A stretch of DNA of 6,858 bases from a virus. Under the pieces are notes generated by a model, which was not told the DNA's origin, made no database searches, and was given only the letters and a program-made list of their open reading frames with translations. Shown here piece by piece: positions 1 to 5,393 of this stretch. Each line of letters starts with the position of its first letter. Position 1 is the first letter of the stretch. Both the position numbers and the translations under genes were made by a program. The stretch is from the IMG/VR virus record IMGVR_UViG_3300011507_000009, positions 1 through 6,858 of that record. One strand, 5' to 3'.

Positions 1-123
1 CCGTCCTGATCGTAACCAACGGACATACGCCGCGAGTTGCGCTTGAGCATTTCAAGATCGCTAGTGGATACGCAGAACGGCTTCGGGAAAGTCACCGGCT
101 GGGCGATCTGGTCATATCTCGGA
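1..123. repeat. Left copy of the exact 123-nt terminal direct repeat (circularisation overlap of the contig)
   Basis: Bases 1-123 are identical base for base to 6736-6858. The repeat lies inside the Zot coding frame, so it is not an LTR or IS end. Confidence 0.9.
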
Positions 124-929
124 GCCGACGACGGCACGTCAGCAACCCGAGGCGTGCGCGAGGCGATGTATTCATCGACGCCGATAGTGTCCATCGACGC
201 AGGCGACGCCGTAGCCAAGATGCCCTTGGACGGCTGAGCAACCTGTTCAGGCTCAGCCACCGGCTCAGCATCCCCAACGATACGGCCCGATATCTTCCAA
301 GCGGCAAGGCCGAGCAGGACGAGGCAGACCACGAAGACATAGAGCGCCCGAGGCGCTCTGAACTTGAAGTGATGTTCGGTCCCATCCTTCACCGACTTGT
401 AGCAACCGAAATACGTCGGGTCAATGGTGATCCGGGTTGACTGACCGTCAGGAAAGTCGAGCTTCTCACCGACGTTCATCACCGGTTGATCGAACTCCCA
501 ACGCTTGATGAACTTGCCGCCCCGCCCCCGGTAGTAGTGGATGTGCATGCCGCACAGCTCGCGCATATGCGAGTCAATCAGCTTGGGGCTTTGCGTGATG
601 GCATGAAGCTCGTGACCATCCTTCCGCATGATTTCAAGCCTTGAGGCATAGAGCGGCACCTTGGAGCCTTGGGGGCGAACACGGAACCAGGTCTGCGCCT
701 CGTCGATAACAATGATCGCGTTCTGCGGTAGGTCGTACCAGGTCTCAGGGTGATCGAACTCAACCCAAGTAGCCTTGATGGCCGGATGATCGGGCTTAAA
801 GTCGGTGATGTTGCAGTAATAGACCGTGCGCCCTTCCCTGTGCGCCTTCTGGTCAATTTCCTTGATCGAGTTCAGGGTCTTACCGTTGCCCTGCTTGCCA
901 GTTCGAAGCACAAACGTTGCCGTAGACAT
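1..929 (-). CDS. zot: Zot / pI-type assembly ATPase, N-terminal 309 codons. The gene runs off the window start and continues at 6735->6471; the full gene is join(6471..6735,1..929), 397 aa.
   Basis: My own translation from ATG 929-927 reads MSTATFVLRTGKQGNGKTLNSIKEIDQKAHREGRTVYYCNITDF... Walker A is GKQGNGKT, Walker B-like is IIVIDEAQ, and the mid-protein TM segment is ALYVFVVCLVLLGLAAW. No stop occurs down to base 1. The frame (929 mod 3 = 2) matches the 6471..6830 ORF, whose ...VTFPKPFCVSTSDLEMLKRNSRRMSVGYDQDG lies in the overlap. The start overlaps the upstream stop (TGATG). The ORF track misses it because the frame is open at the window edge. Confidence 0.9.
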   Translation of the reverse strand, partial: MSTATFVLRTGKQGNGKTLNSIKEIDQKAHREGRTVYYCNITDFKPDHPAIKATWVEFDHPETWYDLPQNAIIVIDEAQTWFRVRPQGSKVPLYASRLEIMRKDGHELHAITQSPKLIDSHMRELCGMHIHYYRGRGGKFIKRWEFDQPVMNVGEKLDFPDGQSTRITIDPTYFGCYKSVKDGTEHHFKFRAPRALYVFVVCLVLLGLAAWKISGRIVGDAEPVAEPEQVAQPSKGILATASPASMDTIGVDEYIASRTPRVADVPSSAPRYDQIAQPVTFPKPFCVSTSDLEMLKRNSRRMSVGYDQD

Positions 930-1237
930 CAGTTACCCCCGACAGAGCCGAGCGACTTTTTCGAGCCGCTGACCTTGTTGACGCCAGACAGAACAATGCG
1001 CGTAGTCACCGCGGCGAAAACGATGTTGACCGCCACGTCGAACTTGAACATGCCCATAATTTGGGCAACGTCAGCGGACACGCCAGTTAGCTGAGCCATC
1101 ACCTGGGCCTTTGCCTGATCCATCACGAAGTTGATGCCGACATAGGTCACGGCACCAATGCCGAGGGCAGACAGCACCTTCTTGACCAGCGGAACGATGG
1201 CCGTGCTGAGAAACGTCATAATCGCGACAAAGTGCAT
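929..1237 (-). CDS. pVI-like minor coat / membrane protein (DUF2523-like), 102 aa
   Basis: ORF track 929..1237. The protein is hydrophobic, with the motif VLSALGIGAVTYVGINF that I recall as typical of the small protein between pIII and Zot in Pf/Xanthomonas/Ralstonia-type inoviruses. It sits between the adsorption gene and Zot, with 1-nt stop/start overlaps on both sides (TAATG at 1237, TGATG at 929). Confidence 0.75.
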   Translation of the reverse strand: MHFVAIMTFLSTAIVPLVKKVLSALGIGAVTYVGINFVMDQAKAQVMAQLTGVSADVAQIMGMFKFDVAVNIVFAAVTTRIVLSGVNKVSGSKKSLGSVGGN

Positions 1238-2607
1238 TACTCACCCCCGAAAGAACGGCCGACGTAGACCATGAAGAACAGCGAGGCCATCGCCACAACG
1301 ATGTAGGAAAGCGCCCCGGCGAAGTCGCAGAGCGGCTGATAGGAAAGCTGGATCGTGCGGCCGATGCTCTCGATGCGGAGCGACTTTGGCGCTGGACAGG
1401 TGGAGCTATAGAAGCGAGTGCCCATATTGAAAAAGCCGCTCGCGTCAACGGTCTCTTCCTTGAGCTGATATTCGCCCTTGGCTATCTCCGCATTGATAGT
1501 CGGCGCTGCCTTGGAATAGTCGCGGGCTTCCTGGTCGGCGCATGCCTGCATTTTCTGAGACCGAAGAATCGCGCACTGAATGGCATCGCCCTCGCAGGTA
1601 ATCGTGGCCGAACAGGACTCACCGGAAACCGAAGACTTAGGGTAATCGTCTTCATCGTCCGAACCATCACCGGAGCCGCCGCCACCGCCAGGAAGACCAC
1701 CACCAGTATCGCCACCCGAGCCATCGCCGCCCGAGCCATCGCCACCAGAGCCATCGCCACCCGAGCCATCGCCACCGCCACCGCCACCGCCGCCAGTATC
1801 ACCGCCGCCAGTATCACCGCCGCCAGTATCACCGCCGCCAGTATCACCGCCGCCATCGTCAGGATTTTTGGCGCAGGTGGTACCAGACCAACCATAACCA
1901 GGCGGACAGCCGGGATCGTTTGGATCAGACGGAGGTGTGTCAGGAGTATTTGGTGGGTTTAGAGGATCACCAGGAACACCAAGGGGATAGTCAGGCTCAG
2001 AGCAGTTATCGCCAGTTGCGTTACCAATAAAATTGCAAAATCCCTCAGTTTGGGAACCGGGAGTAAAAAAACAAGAACTAGCGCGATTATCGGTCAGATA
2101 ACTGCATCGGTTATAACAGACAGTGCCAGGCGAACGAGTGACGACATAATTAGCGCCATTGGAGTTGACAACCGGGGCAGGTGATGACCTGAAAATGCCG
2201 GGGCTTGCAGTGCTGCAATCTGGTGGTGGAGGCTCGCACTCGCCATTATCCGGGTTATATAAGTAATCTACAGGGCAAGAATCGCCAATGCGTAAAGCAG
2301 AGCCTAAGTTATAATCACCACCATTTGTCCCCTCAGGGTGAAGCGTTCTGCTCATTACACAAATATAAAGTGTCGCAGCTTGCTTAATCATTCTTTTAAA
2401 TTGGTAGCGATAACGACCATTACTAGACTCTGCTTGTGAATTAGCAAATTGAGCAACTTGTTGACAGACAGAGGTGGGAGAGGAGCCTGTAATAGTCCCC
2501 TTAGAATGCTCATAAATCCACTTATATTCCGCAGCAAAACTAGCCTGTATATGAAAAACAGAAAAAAACACAATGAGCAGACGAGAATAAATAATAATAG
2601 AGCGCAT
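1237..2607 (-). CDS. pIII-like adsorption / minor coat protein, 456 aa from ATG 2607
   Basis: Signal peptide MRSIIIYSRLLIVFFSVFHIQASFA|AEYKW. The N-terminal half is Cys-rich. The Pro-rich then Gly-rich linker contains (GGGDT)x4 and (GGDGS)x4. The C-terminal domain has CEGDAIQCAILRSQKMQAC and a terminal membrane anchor, ALSYIVVAMASLFFMVYVGRSF. A GGGCGGG SD-like element lies 6 nt upstream of ATG 2607. The track's TTG start at 2664 would add 19 hydrophobic residues ahead of a normal signal peptide. Confidence 0.85.
   Translation of the reverse strand: MRSIIIYSRLLIVFFSVFHIQASFAAEYKWIYEHSKGTITGSSPTSVCQQVAQFANSQAESSNGRYRYQFKRMIKQAATLYICVMSRTLHPEGTNGGDYNLGSALRIGDSCPVDYLYNPDNGECEPPPPDCSTASPGIFRSSPAPVVNSNGANYVVTRSPGTVCYNRCSYLTDNRASSCFFTPGSQTEGFCNFIGNATGDNCSEPDYPLGVPGDPLNPPNTPDTPPSDPNDPGCPPGYGWSGTTCAKNPDDGGGDTGGGDTGGGDTGGGDTGGGGGGGGDGSGGDGSGGDGSGGDGSGGDTGGGLPGGGGGSGDGSDDEDDYPKSSVSGESCSATITCEGDAIQCAILRSQKMQACADQEARDYSKAAPTINAEIAKGEYQLKEETVDASGFFNMGTRFYSSTCPAPKSLRIESIGRTIQLSYQPLCDFAGALSYIVVAMASLFFMVYVGRSFGGE
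1711..1770 (-). repeat. 4 x 15-bp tandem repeat encoding (GGDGS)4 in the pIII linker
   Basis: Units gccacccgagccatc / gccgcccgagccatc / gccaccagagccatc / gccacccgagccatc. Confidence 0.9.
1786..1860 (-). repeat. 4 perfect plus 1 degenerate 15-bp tandem repeat encoding (GGGDT)4 in the pIII linker
   Basis: accgccgccagtatc occurs four times (1786-1845), followed by accgccgccatcgtc (1846-1860). Confidence 0.9.
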
Positions 2608-2608
2608 A

Positions 2609-2680
2609 TTAAACCCGCCCAAAAAATAAAGCCCAGAAAGCAAGAGTAATAACGAAAATCGCAAATTCAGTGGGTCCCAT
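2609..2680 (-). CDS. 23-aa hydrophobic micro-protein (MGPTEFAIFVITLAFWALFFGRV), candidate minor coat / membrane protein
   Basis: ATG 2680-2678 is preceded by GGGAG (2693-2689) with 8-nt spacing. The protein has a single TM-like stretch with a basic end. Its TAA stop lies 1 nt before the pIII ATG. It is below the ORF-track size cut-off. Confidence 0.5.
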   Translation of the reverse strand: MGPTEFAIFVITLAFWALFFGRV

Positions 2681-2693
2681 TTTTCAAACTCCC

Positions 2694-2727
2694 AATAAAA
2701 AGGGGCGCGGTTTGACCCGAGCCCCTT
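2694..2727 (-). terminator. Rho-independent terminator downstream of the major coat gene
   Basis: The minus strand reads AAGGGGC-t-CGG-gtcaaa-CCG-c-GCCCCTT followed by TTTTATT. It sits 18 nt after the coat-gene stop and directly abuts the GGGAG RBS of the next ORF. This matches the terminator after gene VIII in Ff phages. Confidence 0.7.
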
Positions 2728-2745
2728 GGCTGCACAACGGGTCGA

Positions 2746-2934
2746 TTACATCGCGCGGCGCATGTACTTGAACGCAGCGATGCCGACCAGAACGACCAGA
2801 ACGGCACCGCCGATCACAGCGGCGTCAGTACCGGCTTCGGTGATTGCTTCAGTGACACCAGCCGGAACGGCAGCGAAGGCCGAGCCAGCAGCAACGGTGG
2901 AACCAGCGACGAACAGAGCTTTGAGCTTTTGCAT
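2746..2934 (-). CDS. Major coat protein precursor (pVIII-like), 62 aa; predicted mature form is 41 aa
   Basis: It is internal to track ORF 2746..3132, and ATG 2934 has GGAG 8 nt upstream. The sequence is MQKLKALFVAGSTVAAGSAFA|AVPAGVTEAITEAGTDAAVIGGAVLVVLVGIAAFKYMRRAM. This gives a signal peptide, an acidic N-terminus, a hydrophobic core and a basic C-terminus. The ...IGGAVL..VGI..K..RRAM tail resembles Xf/Cf-type coat proteins as I remember them. Confidence 0.9.
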   Translation of the reverse strand: MQKLKALFVAGSTVAAGSAFAAVPAGVTEAITEAGTDAAVIGGAVLVVLVGIAAFKYMRRAM

Positions 2935-2945
2935 GAGATGCACTC

Positions 2946-3158
2946 CTATGTGCGGGTTGAAAGAGCTTTTTTTACTGCAAGAATCCCGAAGACAACCGCG
3001 AACAAAAACAGCGCTTGGCCGGTAAGTACCGGTATATCCTCGGGAGTTAGGCCGGAATGGCCTAATTCGTCGCGCTCGATGGCAGTAAGAGTTCCAACGC
3101 AGGACAAGTAGCCATCCGGCGAAGTTTTCCAACTACCATCGCACGCGAGCAAATACAT
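2946..3158 (-). CDS. 70-aa protein with C-terminal TM helix and basic tail, in the minor-coat (pVII/pIX) slot between the ssDNA-binding gene and the major coat gene
   Basis: ORF track 2946..3158. The sequence ends ...GQALFLFAVVFGILAVKKALSTRT. Its start overlaps the upstream stop (TGATG at 3158). Confidence 0.6.
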   Translation of the reverse strand: MYLLACDGSWKTSPDGYLSCVGTLTAIERDELGHSGLTPEDIPVLTGQALFLFAVVFGILAVKKALSTRT

Positions 3159-3505
3159 CAGTTAGCGCCTGCTGCAACAGGAGCCGGGCGTGGTTGGACG
3201 CGCTGCACAGGAACTGGCAAGCCGTCATCGGATAGCCAGAGGTCCATGCCAAAAGCGGTGCCTGTTTTGGACTTCCACGCTTTGGCATATACGGGGACGG
3301 CAACTTGTTTGCCGATGTACGCCTTATAAGCGTTCTCGATGCCAGAATCGAGTTGGCGCTTGGAAACTTTGAGACCAATAGATTGCTCGACCTCTTGGCC
3401 GAATTGGTCACGACCAGGAGCGGTCAGAACCAAGTAATGCTCAATGATGCCATTCATCTTTTCTTTAGAAGTGACGCCCTTACACAGGCCCATTTGTACC
3501 AGCAT
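3158..3505 (-). CDS. Probable ssDNA-binding protein (pV position), 115 aa from ATG 3505
   Basis: It lies in the frame of track ORF 3158..3568, and the internal ATG 3505 has GAGG 8 nt upstream. Position is rep -> this ORF -> coat genes. The body is beta-rich with a Pro-rich flexible tail (PVPVQRVQPRPAPVAAGAN). The function is assigned by position and composition only. Confidence 0.55.
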   Translation of the reverse strand: MLVQMGLCKGVTSKEKMNGIIEHYLVLTAPGRDQFGQEVEQSIGLKVSKRQLDSGIENAYKAYIGKQVAVPVYAKAWKSKTGTAFGMDLWLSDDGLPVPVQRVQPRPAPVAAGAN

Positions 3506-3519
3506 GGTGATTACCTCGG

Positions 3520-3606
3520 TTATGAACGGGCCCAGCGCCCGAGAAAGTGAATTGCCAACAGTCCGCACATAGTGACGACCAGGACGTTAAGGGTTGCGGC
3601 GATCAT
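3520..3606 (-). CDS. 28-aa hydrophobic micro-protein (MIAATLNVLVVTMCGLLAIHFLGRWARS), candidate pVII/pIX-like membrane protein
   Basis: ATG 3606-3604 overlaps the stop of the preceding 48-aa ORF (ATGA). It has a single TM-like segment with a basic C-terminus, and it ends 14 nt before the pV-like ATG. It is below the ORF-track cut-off. Confidence 0.4.
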   Translation of the reverse strand: MIAATLNVLVVTMCGLLAIHFLGRWARS

Positions 3607-3749
3607 GAAAAAAGCCCGGTACGCTTTTGCGCTTGAAACCAACCGCGCTCGTATTCGTTGTAGTCGTAGCTGCAAAGCAGGTACGGGTTGCAATAAATAC
3701 GGCGCGGACGGTAGTCACGAAAGCCGCACAGATATGCCCAAGAAAGCAT
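3603..3749 (-). CDS. 48-aa Tyr/Cys-rich small protein of unknown function (MLSWAYLCGFRDYRPRRIYCNPYLLCSYDYNEYERGWFQAQKRTGLFS)
   Basis: ATG 3749-3747 overlaps the rep stop codon (TGATG). The frame is open to TGA 3605-3603. It is below the ORF-track cut-off and has no recognisable family. Confidence 0.4.
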   Translation of the reverse strand: MLSWAYLCGFRDYRPRRIYCNPYLLCSYDYNEYERGWFQAQKRTGLFS

Positions 3750-5011
3750 CATGCAGCCTCCACCGATGGCTCAACGTACCAACCAGGACGCTGAGCGCTG
3801 AAATCGACTTGAAGGAAGCGCAGGATCGGAACAACGTTGTTCTTCTGGTCATCCATCTTCAGCTTCTGCAAAGCGGCCTTTGAAAGTCCGCATTCGCAAA
3901 TCTGATCAACGTGGCGGTAGAAGGTCGCACGGGACATAGAATCCATAGTTTCCTGCCAACCGTAATCCTTGATGCTGCGGTATGTGCGAAACAGGTTGAG
4001 AGCAACTGTCTCATTGGCTTTCCCGTTCTTTCCGAACTTCGTCCAACGGGCTTTAAGTGCGGCCAGCACTTTTTCGTCATTAATTACTCGCATGGAGATA
4101 CCTTCAAAGGCCGCAAACAGTTCTTTAGTTACTTGTTCCCAACACCACTGAATAAAACAACTCCCCTGCTCTTCCAGCCGCTCCTGGTAGTCGCACAGGG
4201 CCCATAAATTCGTCGGGATGTTTCTGCGCTCAAGCCAGCGATGCATAACAGTGGCTTCGAGACGAAGAAGGTTTTCCGCCCACTCCTGGAGCGCCGGGTT
4301 CTGGAGCACCGCCAACAGCCGGTGAGCCGCGAACGCCTGGGACGGAACGAAGTTGGCGCCGCCGTAGGCACGAGCGGCCTTGATGGCTTCATCGAGCTGG
4401 CGGCGAAACTCAGGGCCCTTGAGGTAGGCCTTGAGCTTGCGCAGACGGGTTTCCTTGGAGCCCCAATAAGCCGTCGTTTCGTAGTCGTCGCCACGGTTGC
4501 GGGTCTGGCCGTTGCTGACCCCGCGAAGCGCCTGGATCAGTTGGAGCGCGGTGCGCTCATCGGGCAGGCGGGCGGAATAAGTGCAATCGATGCCGTAGAC
4601 CTCGGCGGCTTGCCAGTCCAGCAAGGCCCAGAGCTTCGGGTAGGACCCGGCAAGCCACTTCAACATGACCTCACCACCCTTGCGGATCGAGGTCGGCCCA
4701 AAAACGTTGTGCCCCTGGAGCAGCTTAGCCGGGCTGGCTTTCAGCTCGACGCCGGGCTGCACACGTTTTCCGAGGGACTGGTGAAACACCTTGAAGGCGA
4801 GCGGCGTGAAGCCGGTCGAAAGGCTTTCCCACGCGTGGCTGATGTCCTCGACCTGATAACCACCCTTTCCGTCTGCAAGAACGCTGGTGGCACGAAGCGG
4901 AACACCGAGCTCTTCCAGATCGACGATCAGCAGCTCATTGCCGCGCTTACCAGTGCTGGTAGCGATGGCCTGAGCCTTGAACGGTACGAAAAGATGGATT
5001 TTATCGAGCAT
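3749..5011 (-). CDS. Rolling-circle replication initiation protein, pII / RstA (Phage_CRI-type) family, 420 aa
   Basis: ORF track 3749..5011. The motif KASPAKLLQGHNVFG matches the conserved ..SP.K..QGHN.FG box I recall in filamentous-phage pII/RstA proteins. It is the first and largest gene of the operon, downstream of a divergent control region. Confidence 0.85.
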   Translation of the reverse strand: MLDKIHLFVPFKAQAIATSTGKRGNELLIVDLEELGVPLRATSVLADGKGGYQVEDISHAWESLSTGFTPLAFKVFHQSLGKRVQPGVELKASPAKLLQGHNVFGPTSIRKGGEVMLKWLAGSYPKLWALLDWQAAEVYGIDCTYSARLPDERTALQLIQALRGVSNGQTRNRGDDYETTAYWGSKETRLRKLKAYLKGPEFRRQLDEAIKAARAYGGANFVPSQAFAAHRLLAVLQNPALQEWAENLLRLEATVMHRWLERRNIPTNLWALCDYQERLEEQGSCFIQWCWEQVTKELFAAFEGISMRVINDEKVLAALKARWTKFGKNGKANETVALNLFRTYRSIKDYGWQETMDSMSRATFYRHVDQICECGLSKAALQKLKMDDQKNNVVPILRFLQVDFSAQRPGWYVEPSVEAA

Positions 5012-5054
5012 GCCGGTATTCCGTTACAGCGGTACACGTTACGCGATGGGGGAA

Positions 5055-5083
5055 CTTATACGCCGTAACGCGTTACAAAGCAA
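5055..5083 (-). promoter_or_regulatory. Candidate sigma70 promoter for rep: -35 TTGCTT (5083-5078), 17-nt spacer, -10 TATAAG (5060-5055)
   Basis: Read on the minus strand: TTGCTT-tgtaacgcgttacggcg-TATAAG, about 44 nt upstream of the rep ATG. The spacer contains the 12-bp palindrome. Confidence 0.35.
5065..5076. promoter_or_regulatory. Perfect 12-bp palindrome GTAACGCGTTAC, a candidate operator. Further CGTTAC copies lie at 5022-5027 and 5037-5042.
   Basis: The sequence is exactly self-complementary. It lies between the divergent rep and 65-aa ORF start codons, and the half-site CGTTAC is repeated twice more within 50 bp. Confidence 0.5.
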
Positions 5084-5123
5084 CACGTGACAGAATAACC
5101 AGCATCAGAGGAACACCAGGATC

Positions 5124-5321
5124 ATGACAGTGACCAAGCCCTACCGTGTGCGAGATGAGTTCGCAGACTCGATCAAAGAGAGGCGGATCAACATGATCGT
5201 CGAGACCCGCGAAGACATAGCCGAAGCCGACCTAGTGAACGCAACACTCTGGAAGTATCTCGACCAAATAACCACAAAAGATGTAATGAAATACCGCGAA
5301 GAAGTGCTCAAGAAAGACTGA
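5124..5321 (+). CDS. 65-aa small DNA-binding protein candidate (ribbon-helix-helix-like), divergent from rep, in the slot of an RstR-type phage regulator
   Basis: ORF track 5124..5321. The pattern KPYRVRDEFADSIKERR...EADLVNATLWKYL fits strand-helix-helix of Arc/CopG-type proteins. It is the only convincing plus-strand gene. The SD is marginal (GAGG 12 nt upstream). Confidence 0.5.
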   Translation: MTVTKPYRVRDEFADSIKERRINMIVETREDIAEADLVNATLWKYLDQITTKDVMKYREEVLKKD

Positions 5322-5338
5322 GCAGAAATCGCGCAAAA

Positions 5339-5393
5339 GTCTCACCATGAGACAAGAGTCCACCATTAGAGATGGTGGACCCGGCTGCGCCGG
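5339..5393. other. Three abutting perfect stem-loops in the large intergenic region
   Basis: GTCTCA-cca-TGAGAC (5339-5353), GTCCACCAT-tagag-ATGGTGGAC (5358-5380) and CCGGC-tgc-GCCGG (5381-5393). Confidence 0.7.

Follow-up and report, generated by a model that had tools for sequence, protein, structure and literature searches.

This study deals with a 6,858-nt stretch of viral DNA (IMG/VR record IMGVR_UViG_3300011507_000009; from here on the window), from a Pf-like inovirus with a probable host in Stutzerimonas or Pseudomonas, and in particular with an AT-rich part of it that takes in much of g3p, the gene for the attachment protein (pIII in other filamentous phages). Our findings lead us to see this g3p, with a probability of roughly 0.85, as a mosaic that carries a cassette exchanged between phages of different backbone lineages. 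Comparison with related loci (denoted by L numbers) strongly supports the idea that the AT-rich stretch is mostly the receptor-binding module of g3p and that it has been exchanged between unrelated filamentous phages, in line with an original prediction of module swapping in the receptor-binding half of pIII. The cassette measures ~0.8 kb, from ~2635 down to a point between 1855 and 1690, and comprises a signal peptide of its own, two N domains (N1, N2) and a Pro-rich hinge.

This view is based on a reciprocal pattern of identity. Phage blackswan219-6 matches the window at 1-1819 and 2745-3146 with 85-86% identity and nowhere in between. Closer backbone relatives from metagenomes and IMG/VR (L006/L024, L007/L015, L016-L018, L020-L023, L025, L028), whose Zot proteins share 75-99% amino-acid identity with that of the window, match above ~2610 (89-94%) and below ~1975 (70-98%); 2256-2606 finds no match in any of them, and 1976-2255 is matched by fragments only. 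In all, over ten backbone relatives share the two flanks at 85-98% identity while lacking ~1975-2610. Relatives that share the flanks and differ in the middle, as expected of a swapped module, could be found: in 11 contigs the two flanks are matched and 2256-2606 is not, and in eight of the 11 a match at 1976-2255 is absent too.

The metagenomic contig L009, on the other hand, shares with the window only 1664-2813. Its backbone is unrelated, with a different Rep, an integrase (which the window is without), a coat protein of 46% amino-acid identity and a g6p and Zot of another lineage. Within the cassette (2625-1800) pairwise nucleotide identity is 85% to L009 as opposed to 45-50% to the backbone relatives L006, L007 and L020, while the same three relatives reach 92-93% in the upstream flank (2934-2641; L009, 60%) and 89-92% in the downstream flank (1629-929, the C-terminal domain of g3p plus g6p; L009, 51%). 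Fisher tests on these segment contrasts give p-values from 3e-46 to 3e-103. Segment and flanks, in other words, have different nearest relatives, and the segment also occurs in an unrelated backbone; a donor in which its composition is native was not among the relatives, however, as the only other carrier is L009, which has a low-GC trough of its own.

Comparison of the two halves of the protein, along the lines that had been suggested, gives the same answer. For the C-terminal domain, amino-acid identity is 93-97% to blackswan219-6, P0011 and P0016, whose N domains are only 26-56% identical or unalignable, and again 93-97% to L006, L007 and L020; the N half has 78-87% identity to L009, where the C-terminal domain reaches only 44%. 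For N1, L009 is the sole relative (78% amino-acid identity), all others being at or below 39%, whereas N2, which has 86-87% nucleotide identity to L009, also has relatives in L003 and L035-L039 (83-85% amino-acid identity). The N1 domains on near-identical backbones fall into at least eight types that are no more than 47% identical to each other and mostly without detectable similarity. In relatives of the L009/L003 lineage, similarity breaks off at the g3p start and returns at the N1/N2 border, the hinge or the linker, and in the L003, L035-L039 group the window-type N2 is combined with no fewer than four N1 domains, which argues that N1 and N2 behave as separate, independently exchanged slots. 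Hypervariability of N1 is what one would expect of a domain facing a variable receptor.

Joints of the exchange and a micro-ORF at the g3p start

The crossovers fall in two short patches conserved across the clade, namely the 3' end of a micro open reading frame (micro-ORF) for 23 amino acids between the coat gene and g3p, and the Gly-rich repeat linker of g3p; the exchange itself may have come about by homologous recombination between co-resident phage genomes. At the upstream joint, the backbone relatives remain 90-94% identical to the window through the terminator-like hairpin 3' of the coat gene and down to ~2610-2640. A three-way alignment has the 5' 42 nt of the micro-ORF (its 5' two-thirds) resemble L007 and L006, while the 3' 43 nt plus TAATATGCG resemble L009, with 39 of 43 positions matching by eye; the same L009 likeness holds for its 3' third (TTCTGGGCTTTATTTTTTGGGCGGGTTTAA) and the TATGCG that follows. 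As the 5' part is of backbone type and the 3' part of L009 type, the crossover is placed at ~2625-2640 and not at the terminator, where it had been predicted. The hairpin with its U-run, which is almost identical in sequence in L006 and L007, was not called by a simple terminator scan and has a fold energy that is unexceptional against shuffles (z = -1.0), is hence the compositional edge of the AT-rich island rather than its recombination edge.

The suggestion that the repetitive linker served as the other joint holds up better. The hinge, whose residues are nearly invariant in a 44-sequence alignment, shares 90% identity with L009 and 74-81% with the backbone relatives; the backbone signature DDNGNPPGDGSGG is missing from the window directly after the hinge, and the linker tail GGGLPGGGGGSGDGSDDEDDYPKSS is of backbone type. 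It follows that the downstream joint lies inside the linker, at ~1855-1690. This linker contains two arrays with a period of 15 nt (1785-1855, 100% matches; 1708-1776, 94%), and since repeat number and type differ in every relative, it is itself a fast-changing, slippage-prone region.

The micro-ORF deserves attention in its own right. Its stop lies 1 nt before the g3p start codon (TAATATG), and each of the 24 related loci that were examined has a homologue between coat gene and g3p; among these loci are prophages of Pseudomonas sp. and Pf phage 62-2 of P. aeruginosa, in which the micro-ORF lacks an annotation (coordinates elsewhere are 2501-2569 in L034, 1125-1196 in L009 and 2232-2303 in L001). 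The homologues are 23-27 residues long, have one hydrophobic helix or core, end in (F/L)FGR[IVL] and are preceded by a GGAG- or GGGG-like site; the micro-ORF has no match in Pfam or PHROG. Its GC content in the backbone relatives is 0.38-0.50. Essentially the same peptide is encoded at GC contents of third codon positions (GC3) from 0.33 to 0.88, and the copies of L009 and phage 62-2 differ by one residue and about ten synonymous changes. Constancy of the peptide in the face of such silent variation indicates selection on the protein. The micro-ORF may code for a missed tip or assembly protein, or may act as a translational coupler of g3p. With a homologue at every one of these loci, and with a window copy that is a chimera (backbone-type 5', L009-type 3'), the micro-ORF was, contrary to the earlier idea, not co-acquired with the cassette and belongs to the backbone.

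Two observations on micro-ORFs may be added. In L006 (~4499-4600) a T-run differs by 1 nt, with the effect that the micro-ORF reads on in frame into the last part of the signal peptide of g3p (MGATEYAVIVITLAMWALFSVACSVAFA continuing into DSY...); this is either a homopolymer sequencing error or a natural variant with the micro-ORF as signal peptide. A second type of hydrophobic micro-ORF, 25 residues long, lies directly after the coat stop codon in Pf1 (L106, X52107; MLWSVWLGAFFAGAFITGYRTGEFF, 1073-1150) and in L005 (MIWSLMLGAFMAMALIAGIKVGQYQ, 1203-1280); in Pf1 it is upstream of the annotated terminator, in a stretch that the record labels 'intergenic region'.

The g3p start itself retains what looks like a scar of the exchange. 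The gene begins at 2607 with the cassette's own signal peptide, an arrangement that L009 shares with a near-identical peptide; in front of it stands an in-frame relic of the backbone signal peptide, RFSLLLLLSGLYFLGGFN, whose start codon has changed from ATG to TTG. In L007, L016 and L020-L028 g3p starts with ATG at this very site and encodes MRLSLL(L/R)LLCGLCF..., and the g3p signal peptide of most backbone relatives runs across the micro-ORF in the +1 frame, that is to say in an overlapping-gene arrangement. If started at the relic TTG, the open reading frame of the window would be 475 amino acids long, as the ORF listing has it, and the predicted precursor would have two hydrophobic segments.

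Composition of the cassette and rival explanations

The low-GC island first noted from hand counts is real. Computed GC is 44.4% for 1900-2700 and 43.3% for 1980-2700, with bins as low as 36.7% (2341-2460) and 35.0% (2521-2700), compared to 64.2% (2701-2820) and 71-72% (1681-1860) in the flanks and to 55.4% for the genome (56.6% without the cassette), all in line with the hand counts. Segmentation into a single island works best at 2256-2700, with 38.7% GC and a log-likelihood ratio of 26.8; on a re-run the observed value was 25.7 and was reached by 0 of 200 first-order Markov simulations (maximum 14.6) and by 0 of 200 shuffles of 90-nt blocks (maximum 21.9). The preference for A/T-ending codons is also borne out, with a GC3 of 0.346 in signal peptide, N1 and N2 versus 0.674 for the remaining genes (Fisher p = 2e-21); in the cassette domains, codons that end in G or C are rarer for 17 of 18 amino acids and number 79 where 159 are expected from backbone codon usage (z = -11). 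Most of the third-position excess is T (T3 of 0.50-0.52 versus ~0.2). As for the sharp bounds that had been claimed, the upstream edge at ~2700 is indeed sharp and coincides with the hairpin and U-run (2727-2697), but the downstream side is a graded staircase without a step: 40% GC in signal peptide plus N1 (2242-2607), 50% in N2 (1975-2241), then 55% (hinge) and 68% (linker). The cassette explains the low GC from ~1975 to ~2635, while 2636-2700 (35% GC) is a feature of the backbone, owing to the terminator U-run, the Shine-Dalgarno region and the Phe/Ile/Leu-rich micro-ORF.

Where this composition comes from is a separate matter from the exchange. The cassette may have come from a lower-GC Pf-like lineage, directly or via intermediates, with the window and L009 both as recipients, or else low GC may be an intrinsic property of g3p N domains across the clade (or of a shared AT-rich cassette pool), in which case it is no donor signature; to our minds the two are about equally likely, each falling a little short of even odds, and the second competes with the inference of a lower-GC donor only. 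Acquisition from a lower-GC phage, as originally proposed, is unproven. It would account for a GC3 of 0.35 versus 0.67 across 17 of 18 amino acids, for a cassette that is a compositional outlier in two different backbones and for an N2 with a GC3 of 0.37 next to ~0.70 in the L003, L035-L039 relatives despite 83-85% protein identity, a difference that is hard to attribute to a single mutational regime within one backbone; lower-GC members of the family do exist, such as L005 (49.6% GC), which in hinge and linker has 77-80% identity to the window. But L005 has an N1 of only 28% and an N2 of 62% amino-acid identity, and no low-GC carrier came up in viral, metagenome or genome collections or in a protein database: the search for an N1 donor gave none in IMG/VR, none in GTDB genomes and only L009 in JGI metagenomes, and among 5.8 billion proteins nothing was more than 37% identical. 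Moreover, GC3 of the N domain is depressed in nearly every clade member, whatever its N1 type, which is what an intrinsic bias would predict. At every locus tested, N1 has a GC3 (0.31-0.62) lower than the ~0.67 of the non-cassette genes of the window; in 12 of 13 loci its GC also falls short of that of the genome; g3p and g6p of L005 have a GC3 of 0.33-0.34 compared to 0.47-0.52 in its other genes, and L009, a genome of 55.5% GC, shows the same trough in its cassette. Such a bias might stem from T-biased (C-to-T) mutation on the packaged single strand together with fast turnover, or from weak codon selection; the third-position excess is mostly T, and low- and high-GC N2 differ mainly by C/T on the viral strand (24 of 55 sites). 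Changes polarised since the split of window and L009 run from GC to AT by 10:6 and 10:5, with no sign of amelioration, albeit this is weak evidence given that a GC-rich N2 outgroup biases parsimony. Against an intrinsic cause, the window and L009 are extreme, lying 0.33 in GC3 under their backbones where most relatives lie 0.1-0.2 under.

That the mosaic is an assembly chimera of two co-occurring phages, joined at short shared sequences (micro-ORF 3' end, Gly-rich repeats), is in our view very unlikely. Both junctions do fall in short conserved or repetitive patches, a 123-nt terminal overlap is typical of de Bruijn graph assembly, and the exact g3p products of 456 and 475 amino acids were not found in other public assemblies. 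However, mosaics of this kind, bounded at the same places, are known from over ten independent contigs that come from different samples, as well as from an integrated prophage, the patch that known relatives have in common at the upstream joint is shorter than 20 nt and hence far below the k-mer implied by the 123-nt overlap, and nothing is broken in the reading frame of g3p, at the TAATATG junction or in the signal peptide. Even less probable is divergence of the N half in place, under diversifying selection and without transfer. Extreme divergence could mimic replacement, seeing that N1 is without detectable similarity to the N1 of most backbone relatives, but this is effectively refuted by L009 with its 85% identical cassette in a backbone only 51-60% identical elsewhere; nor does the window hold a reverse transcriptase, template repeat or inverted repeat for local hypermutation. 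A diversity-generating retroelement or shufflon was considered and dropped: the only direct-repeat families in the window are the linker array and the terminal overlap, inverted repeats are absent, and no reverse transcriptase or recombinase gene was seen, the enzyme-length ORFs being accounted for as Rep, Zot and g3p (Rep and Zot via homologues only).

Several points do weigh against the exchange of a receptor-binding cassette as we see it. The nearest relative of the cassette is only 85% identical and so points to no donor or direction of transfer, and the failure to find the exact g3p elsewhere means that this combination has been seen once. Within the linker repeats, the downstream crossover point cannot be placed more finely. 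The receptor-binding role of the N domains is by analogy with Ff, CTXphi and Pf only: a Foldseek search of the N-half model against PDB gave no match at E <= 0.001 (best E = 0.13), and the only hit of a phmmer search with g3p against PDB was a trypsin inhibitor at E = 0.53, with none to a solved pIII.

Genome, features and domains of g3p

Positions 1-123 of the window are repeated perfectly and in direct orientation at 6736-6858, so the genome is circular and 6,735 nt long, with a 123-nt assembly overlap at the contig ends. All recognisable genes are on the minus strand and follow inovirus gene order (Table 1). Nucleotide identity of the coat gene is 92-93% to the backbone relatives L006, L007 and L020 and ~60% to L009.

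Table 1. Features of the window, with positions counted from its first letter
Feature	Position	Strand	Remarks
Rep	5011-3749	-	identified only via homologues in related loci
G5P-like ORF	ends at 3158	-	
70-aa membrane protein	3158-2946	-	phrog_4800
Major coat protein g8p, 62 aa	2746..2934	-	backbone segment, 60% GC; Pfam Phage_Coat_B (PF05356), E = 1e-18
Hairpin and U-run 3' of coat gene, likely intrinsic terminator	2697..2727	-	RNA fold: stem GGGGCUC.GGG/CCG.CGCCCC, then UUUUU
Hydrophobic micro-ORF, 23 aa, MGPTEFAIFVITLAFWALFFGRV	2609..2680	-	GGGAG Shine-Dalgarno-like site upstream
Relic of backbone g3p signal peptide, RFSLLLLLSGLYFLGGFN	2608..2664	-	in frame with g3p; ATG to TTG at 2664; overlaps micro-ORF in +1 frame
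Upstream crossover zone	2625..2640	-	inside micro-ORF, codons W-A-L-F
g3p, 456 aa	2607-1237	-	
g3p ATG (2607) and cassette's own signal peptide, MRSIIIYSRLLIVFFSVFHIQASFA	2533..2607	-	same arrangement in L009, near-identical peptide
N1 domain, aa 26-122	2242..2532	-	lowest-GC part; signal peptide plus N1 (2242-2607) 40% GC, GC3 0.31; hypervariable module
N2 domain, aa 123-211	1975..2241	-	50% GC, GC3 ~0.37
Pro-rich hinge, DPLNPPNTPDTPPSDPNDPGCPPGYGWSGTTCAKNPDD	1855..1974	-	conserved clade-wide; window of L009 type (NTPDTP rather than DTPDVP)
Gly-rich tandem-repeat linker, contains downstream crossover zone	1690..1854	-	(GGGDT)x4, then G8, then (DGSGG)x4
C-terminal virion-anchor domain, aa 327-456, and stop codon	1237..1629	-	backbone segment, 58.5% GC, GC3 0.73
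g6p, DUF2523	1237-929	-	directly 3' of g3p, stop and start codons overlapping
Zot	runs across contig ends	-	identified only via homologues in related loci

The closest phages in GenBank are two Inoviridae from a black-swan cloacal swab, blackswan219-6 and blackswan219-1. The structural and assembly module (within 1-3146) is ~85% identical to the former, the replication module with G5P and Rep (within 3174-5010) is 82-87% identical to the latter, and neither of the two otherwise shares anything with the part of the other that matches the window. Mosaicism is hence genome-wide, with replication and structural modules that match different phages, and the region 5012-6470 is shared with any relative only in patches. 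As to the host, L007, a close backbone relative, is a prophage within a 33-kb contig where the glutathione reductase next to it has 98-100% identity to Stutzerimonas stutzeri-group proteins, and the nearest prophages in genomes belong to Pseudomonas spp. A 275-aa ORF on the plus strand (4241-5068), antisense within the Rep gene and in the part of the genome with the highest GC (4276-4855, 64.7%), is probably a by-product of composition.

The protein encoded by g3p matches phrog_4352 with E = 3.2e-95 over residues 11-454, and a protein-database search gave 279 matches at E <= 1e-3, many of them Pseudomonas 'attachment protein' entries. Full-length homology and the position between coat gene and g6p/Zot both identify it as a Pf-like attachment protein, and it has the signal peptide, Cys-rich N domains, Gly-rich linker and hydrophobic C-terminal anchor to go with it. 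An AlphaFold2 model of residues 26-251 predicts two folded domains followed by a flexible hinge of low confidence, with a mean pLDDT (predicted local distance difference test) of 89.6; in BFVD it has weak matches only, to other uncharacterised inovirus proteins. Labels such as 'TolA-binding' for N1 and 'pilus-binding' for N2 were dropped, there being no significant structure or sequence match in PDB, and assignment to the TspB family (PF05616), the label carried by the blackswan219-6 homologue, was rejected at 18.1 bits versus a cutoff of 20 and with coverage of residues 383-455 only.

Known systems and meaning of the exchange

In Ff, IKe and CTXphi, pIII has two N-terminal domains, one binding TolA and the other the pilus, which are joined by Gly-rich linkers, and swapping N domains can retarget host range, as with fd, which infects V. 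cholerae when displaying the N domain of CTXphi pIII. Like these proteins, the g3p product of the window has a pair of folded N domains, a linker that is Gly-rich and flexible, and an anchor at its C-terminus, but it has no significant sequence or structure match to solved pIII domains. By analogy with Ff, CTXphi and Pf, its N domains would set receptor specificity (type IV pilus and/or TolA), and a swap would alter adsorption specificity. The AT-rich, T3-rich composition of the cassette may reflect a history outside this backbone.

Closer to hand is G3P/CoaA of the Pf type (PA0724 of Pf4, ORF437 of Pf1), with which the window shares the gene order coat, g3p, g6p (DUF2523) and Zot as well as signal peptide, Cys-rich N domains, a hinge of the form PPSDPNDPGCP.GW/YGWSGTTC, Gly-rich linker and C-terminal anchor. 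Amino-acid identity to P. aeruginosa 'attachment protein' entries is 35-49%, and ORF437 of Pf1 has the same hinge. Alleles of G3P in Pf prophages are reported to differ mostly in their first part, N1 (PMC7549136). Unlike the Pf type, the window has a small backbone (6.7 kb) without integrase, for which the blackswan219 phages are the nearest named relatives and which has a prophage relative in the Stutzerimonas stutzeri group; the N1 allele has a single known relative, and the compositional contrast is unusually strong. A further parallel is VFJphi of Vibrio cholerae, a mosaic of fs2 and VEJ/VCYphi where a stretch of ~700 bp, located downstream of the att site, was exchanged (PMC3731265). In both cases recombination between inovirus lineages replaces a block of sub-kilobase to kilobase size in an otherwise conserved genome (PMC3731265), but the block in the window is intragenic, being the receptor-binding half of g3p with joints within the micro-ORF and the linker.

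Mosaic inoviruses and swappable pIII N domains are thus an already established concept, and what we describe is a clean example of known phage mosaicism with no new mechanism. What the window adds is a sharply resolved intragenic case with reciprocal evidence, mapped joints and a population of alternative cassettes. We are tempted, with the odds somewhat against us, to extend this to Pf-like inoviruses of Pseudomonas and Stutzerimonas at large, which might keep a population-wide cassette system with two slots (N1, N2) and fixed joints at the micro-gene (23-27 aa), the N1/N2 border and the Pro-hinge plus Gly-repeat linker, a cassette pool that is AT/T3-rich relative to all backbones, and a micro-gene that is a functional virion or assembly protein or g3p coupler missed in Pf annotations. 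The conserved micro-ORF between coat gene and g3p is the most interesting by-product of this work and merits annotation. If the exchange is as we see it, the window would offer a natural example of how adsorption of a filamentous phage is retargeted, with the receptor-binding half replaced as a unit while the anchor half and the remainder of the genome stay. Host prediction for inoviruses from backbone similarity would then often be wrong, and the natural joints (g3p start, hinge/linker) would be ready-made splice points for the engineering of Pf-like phages.

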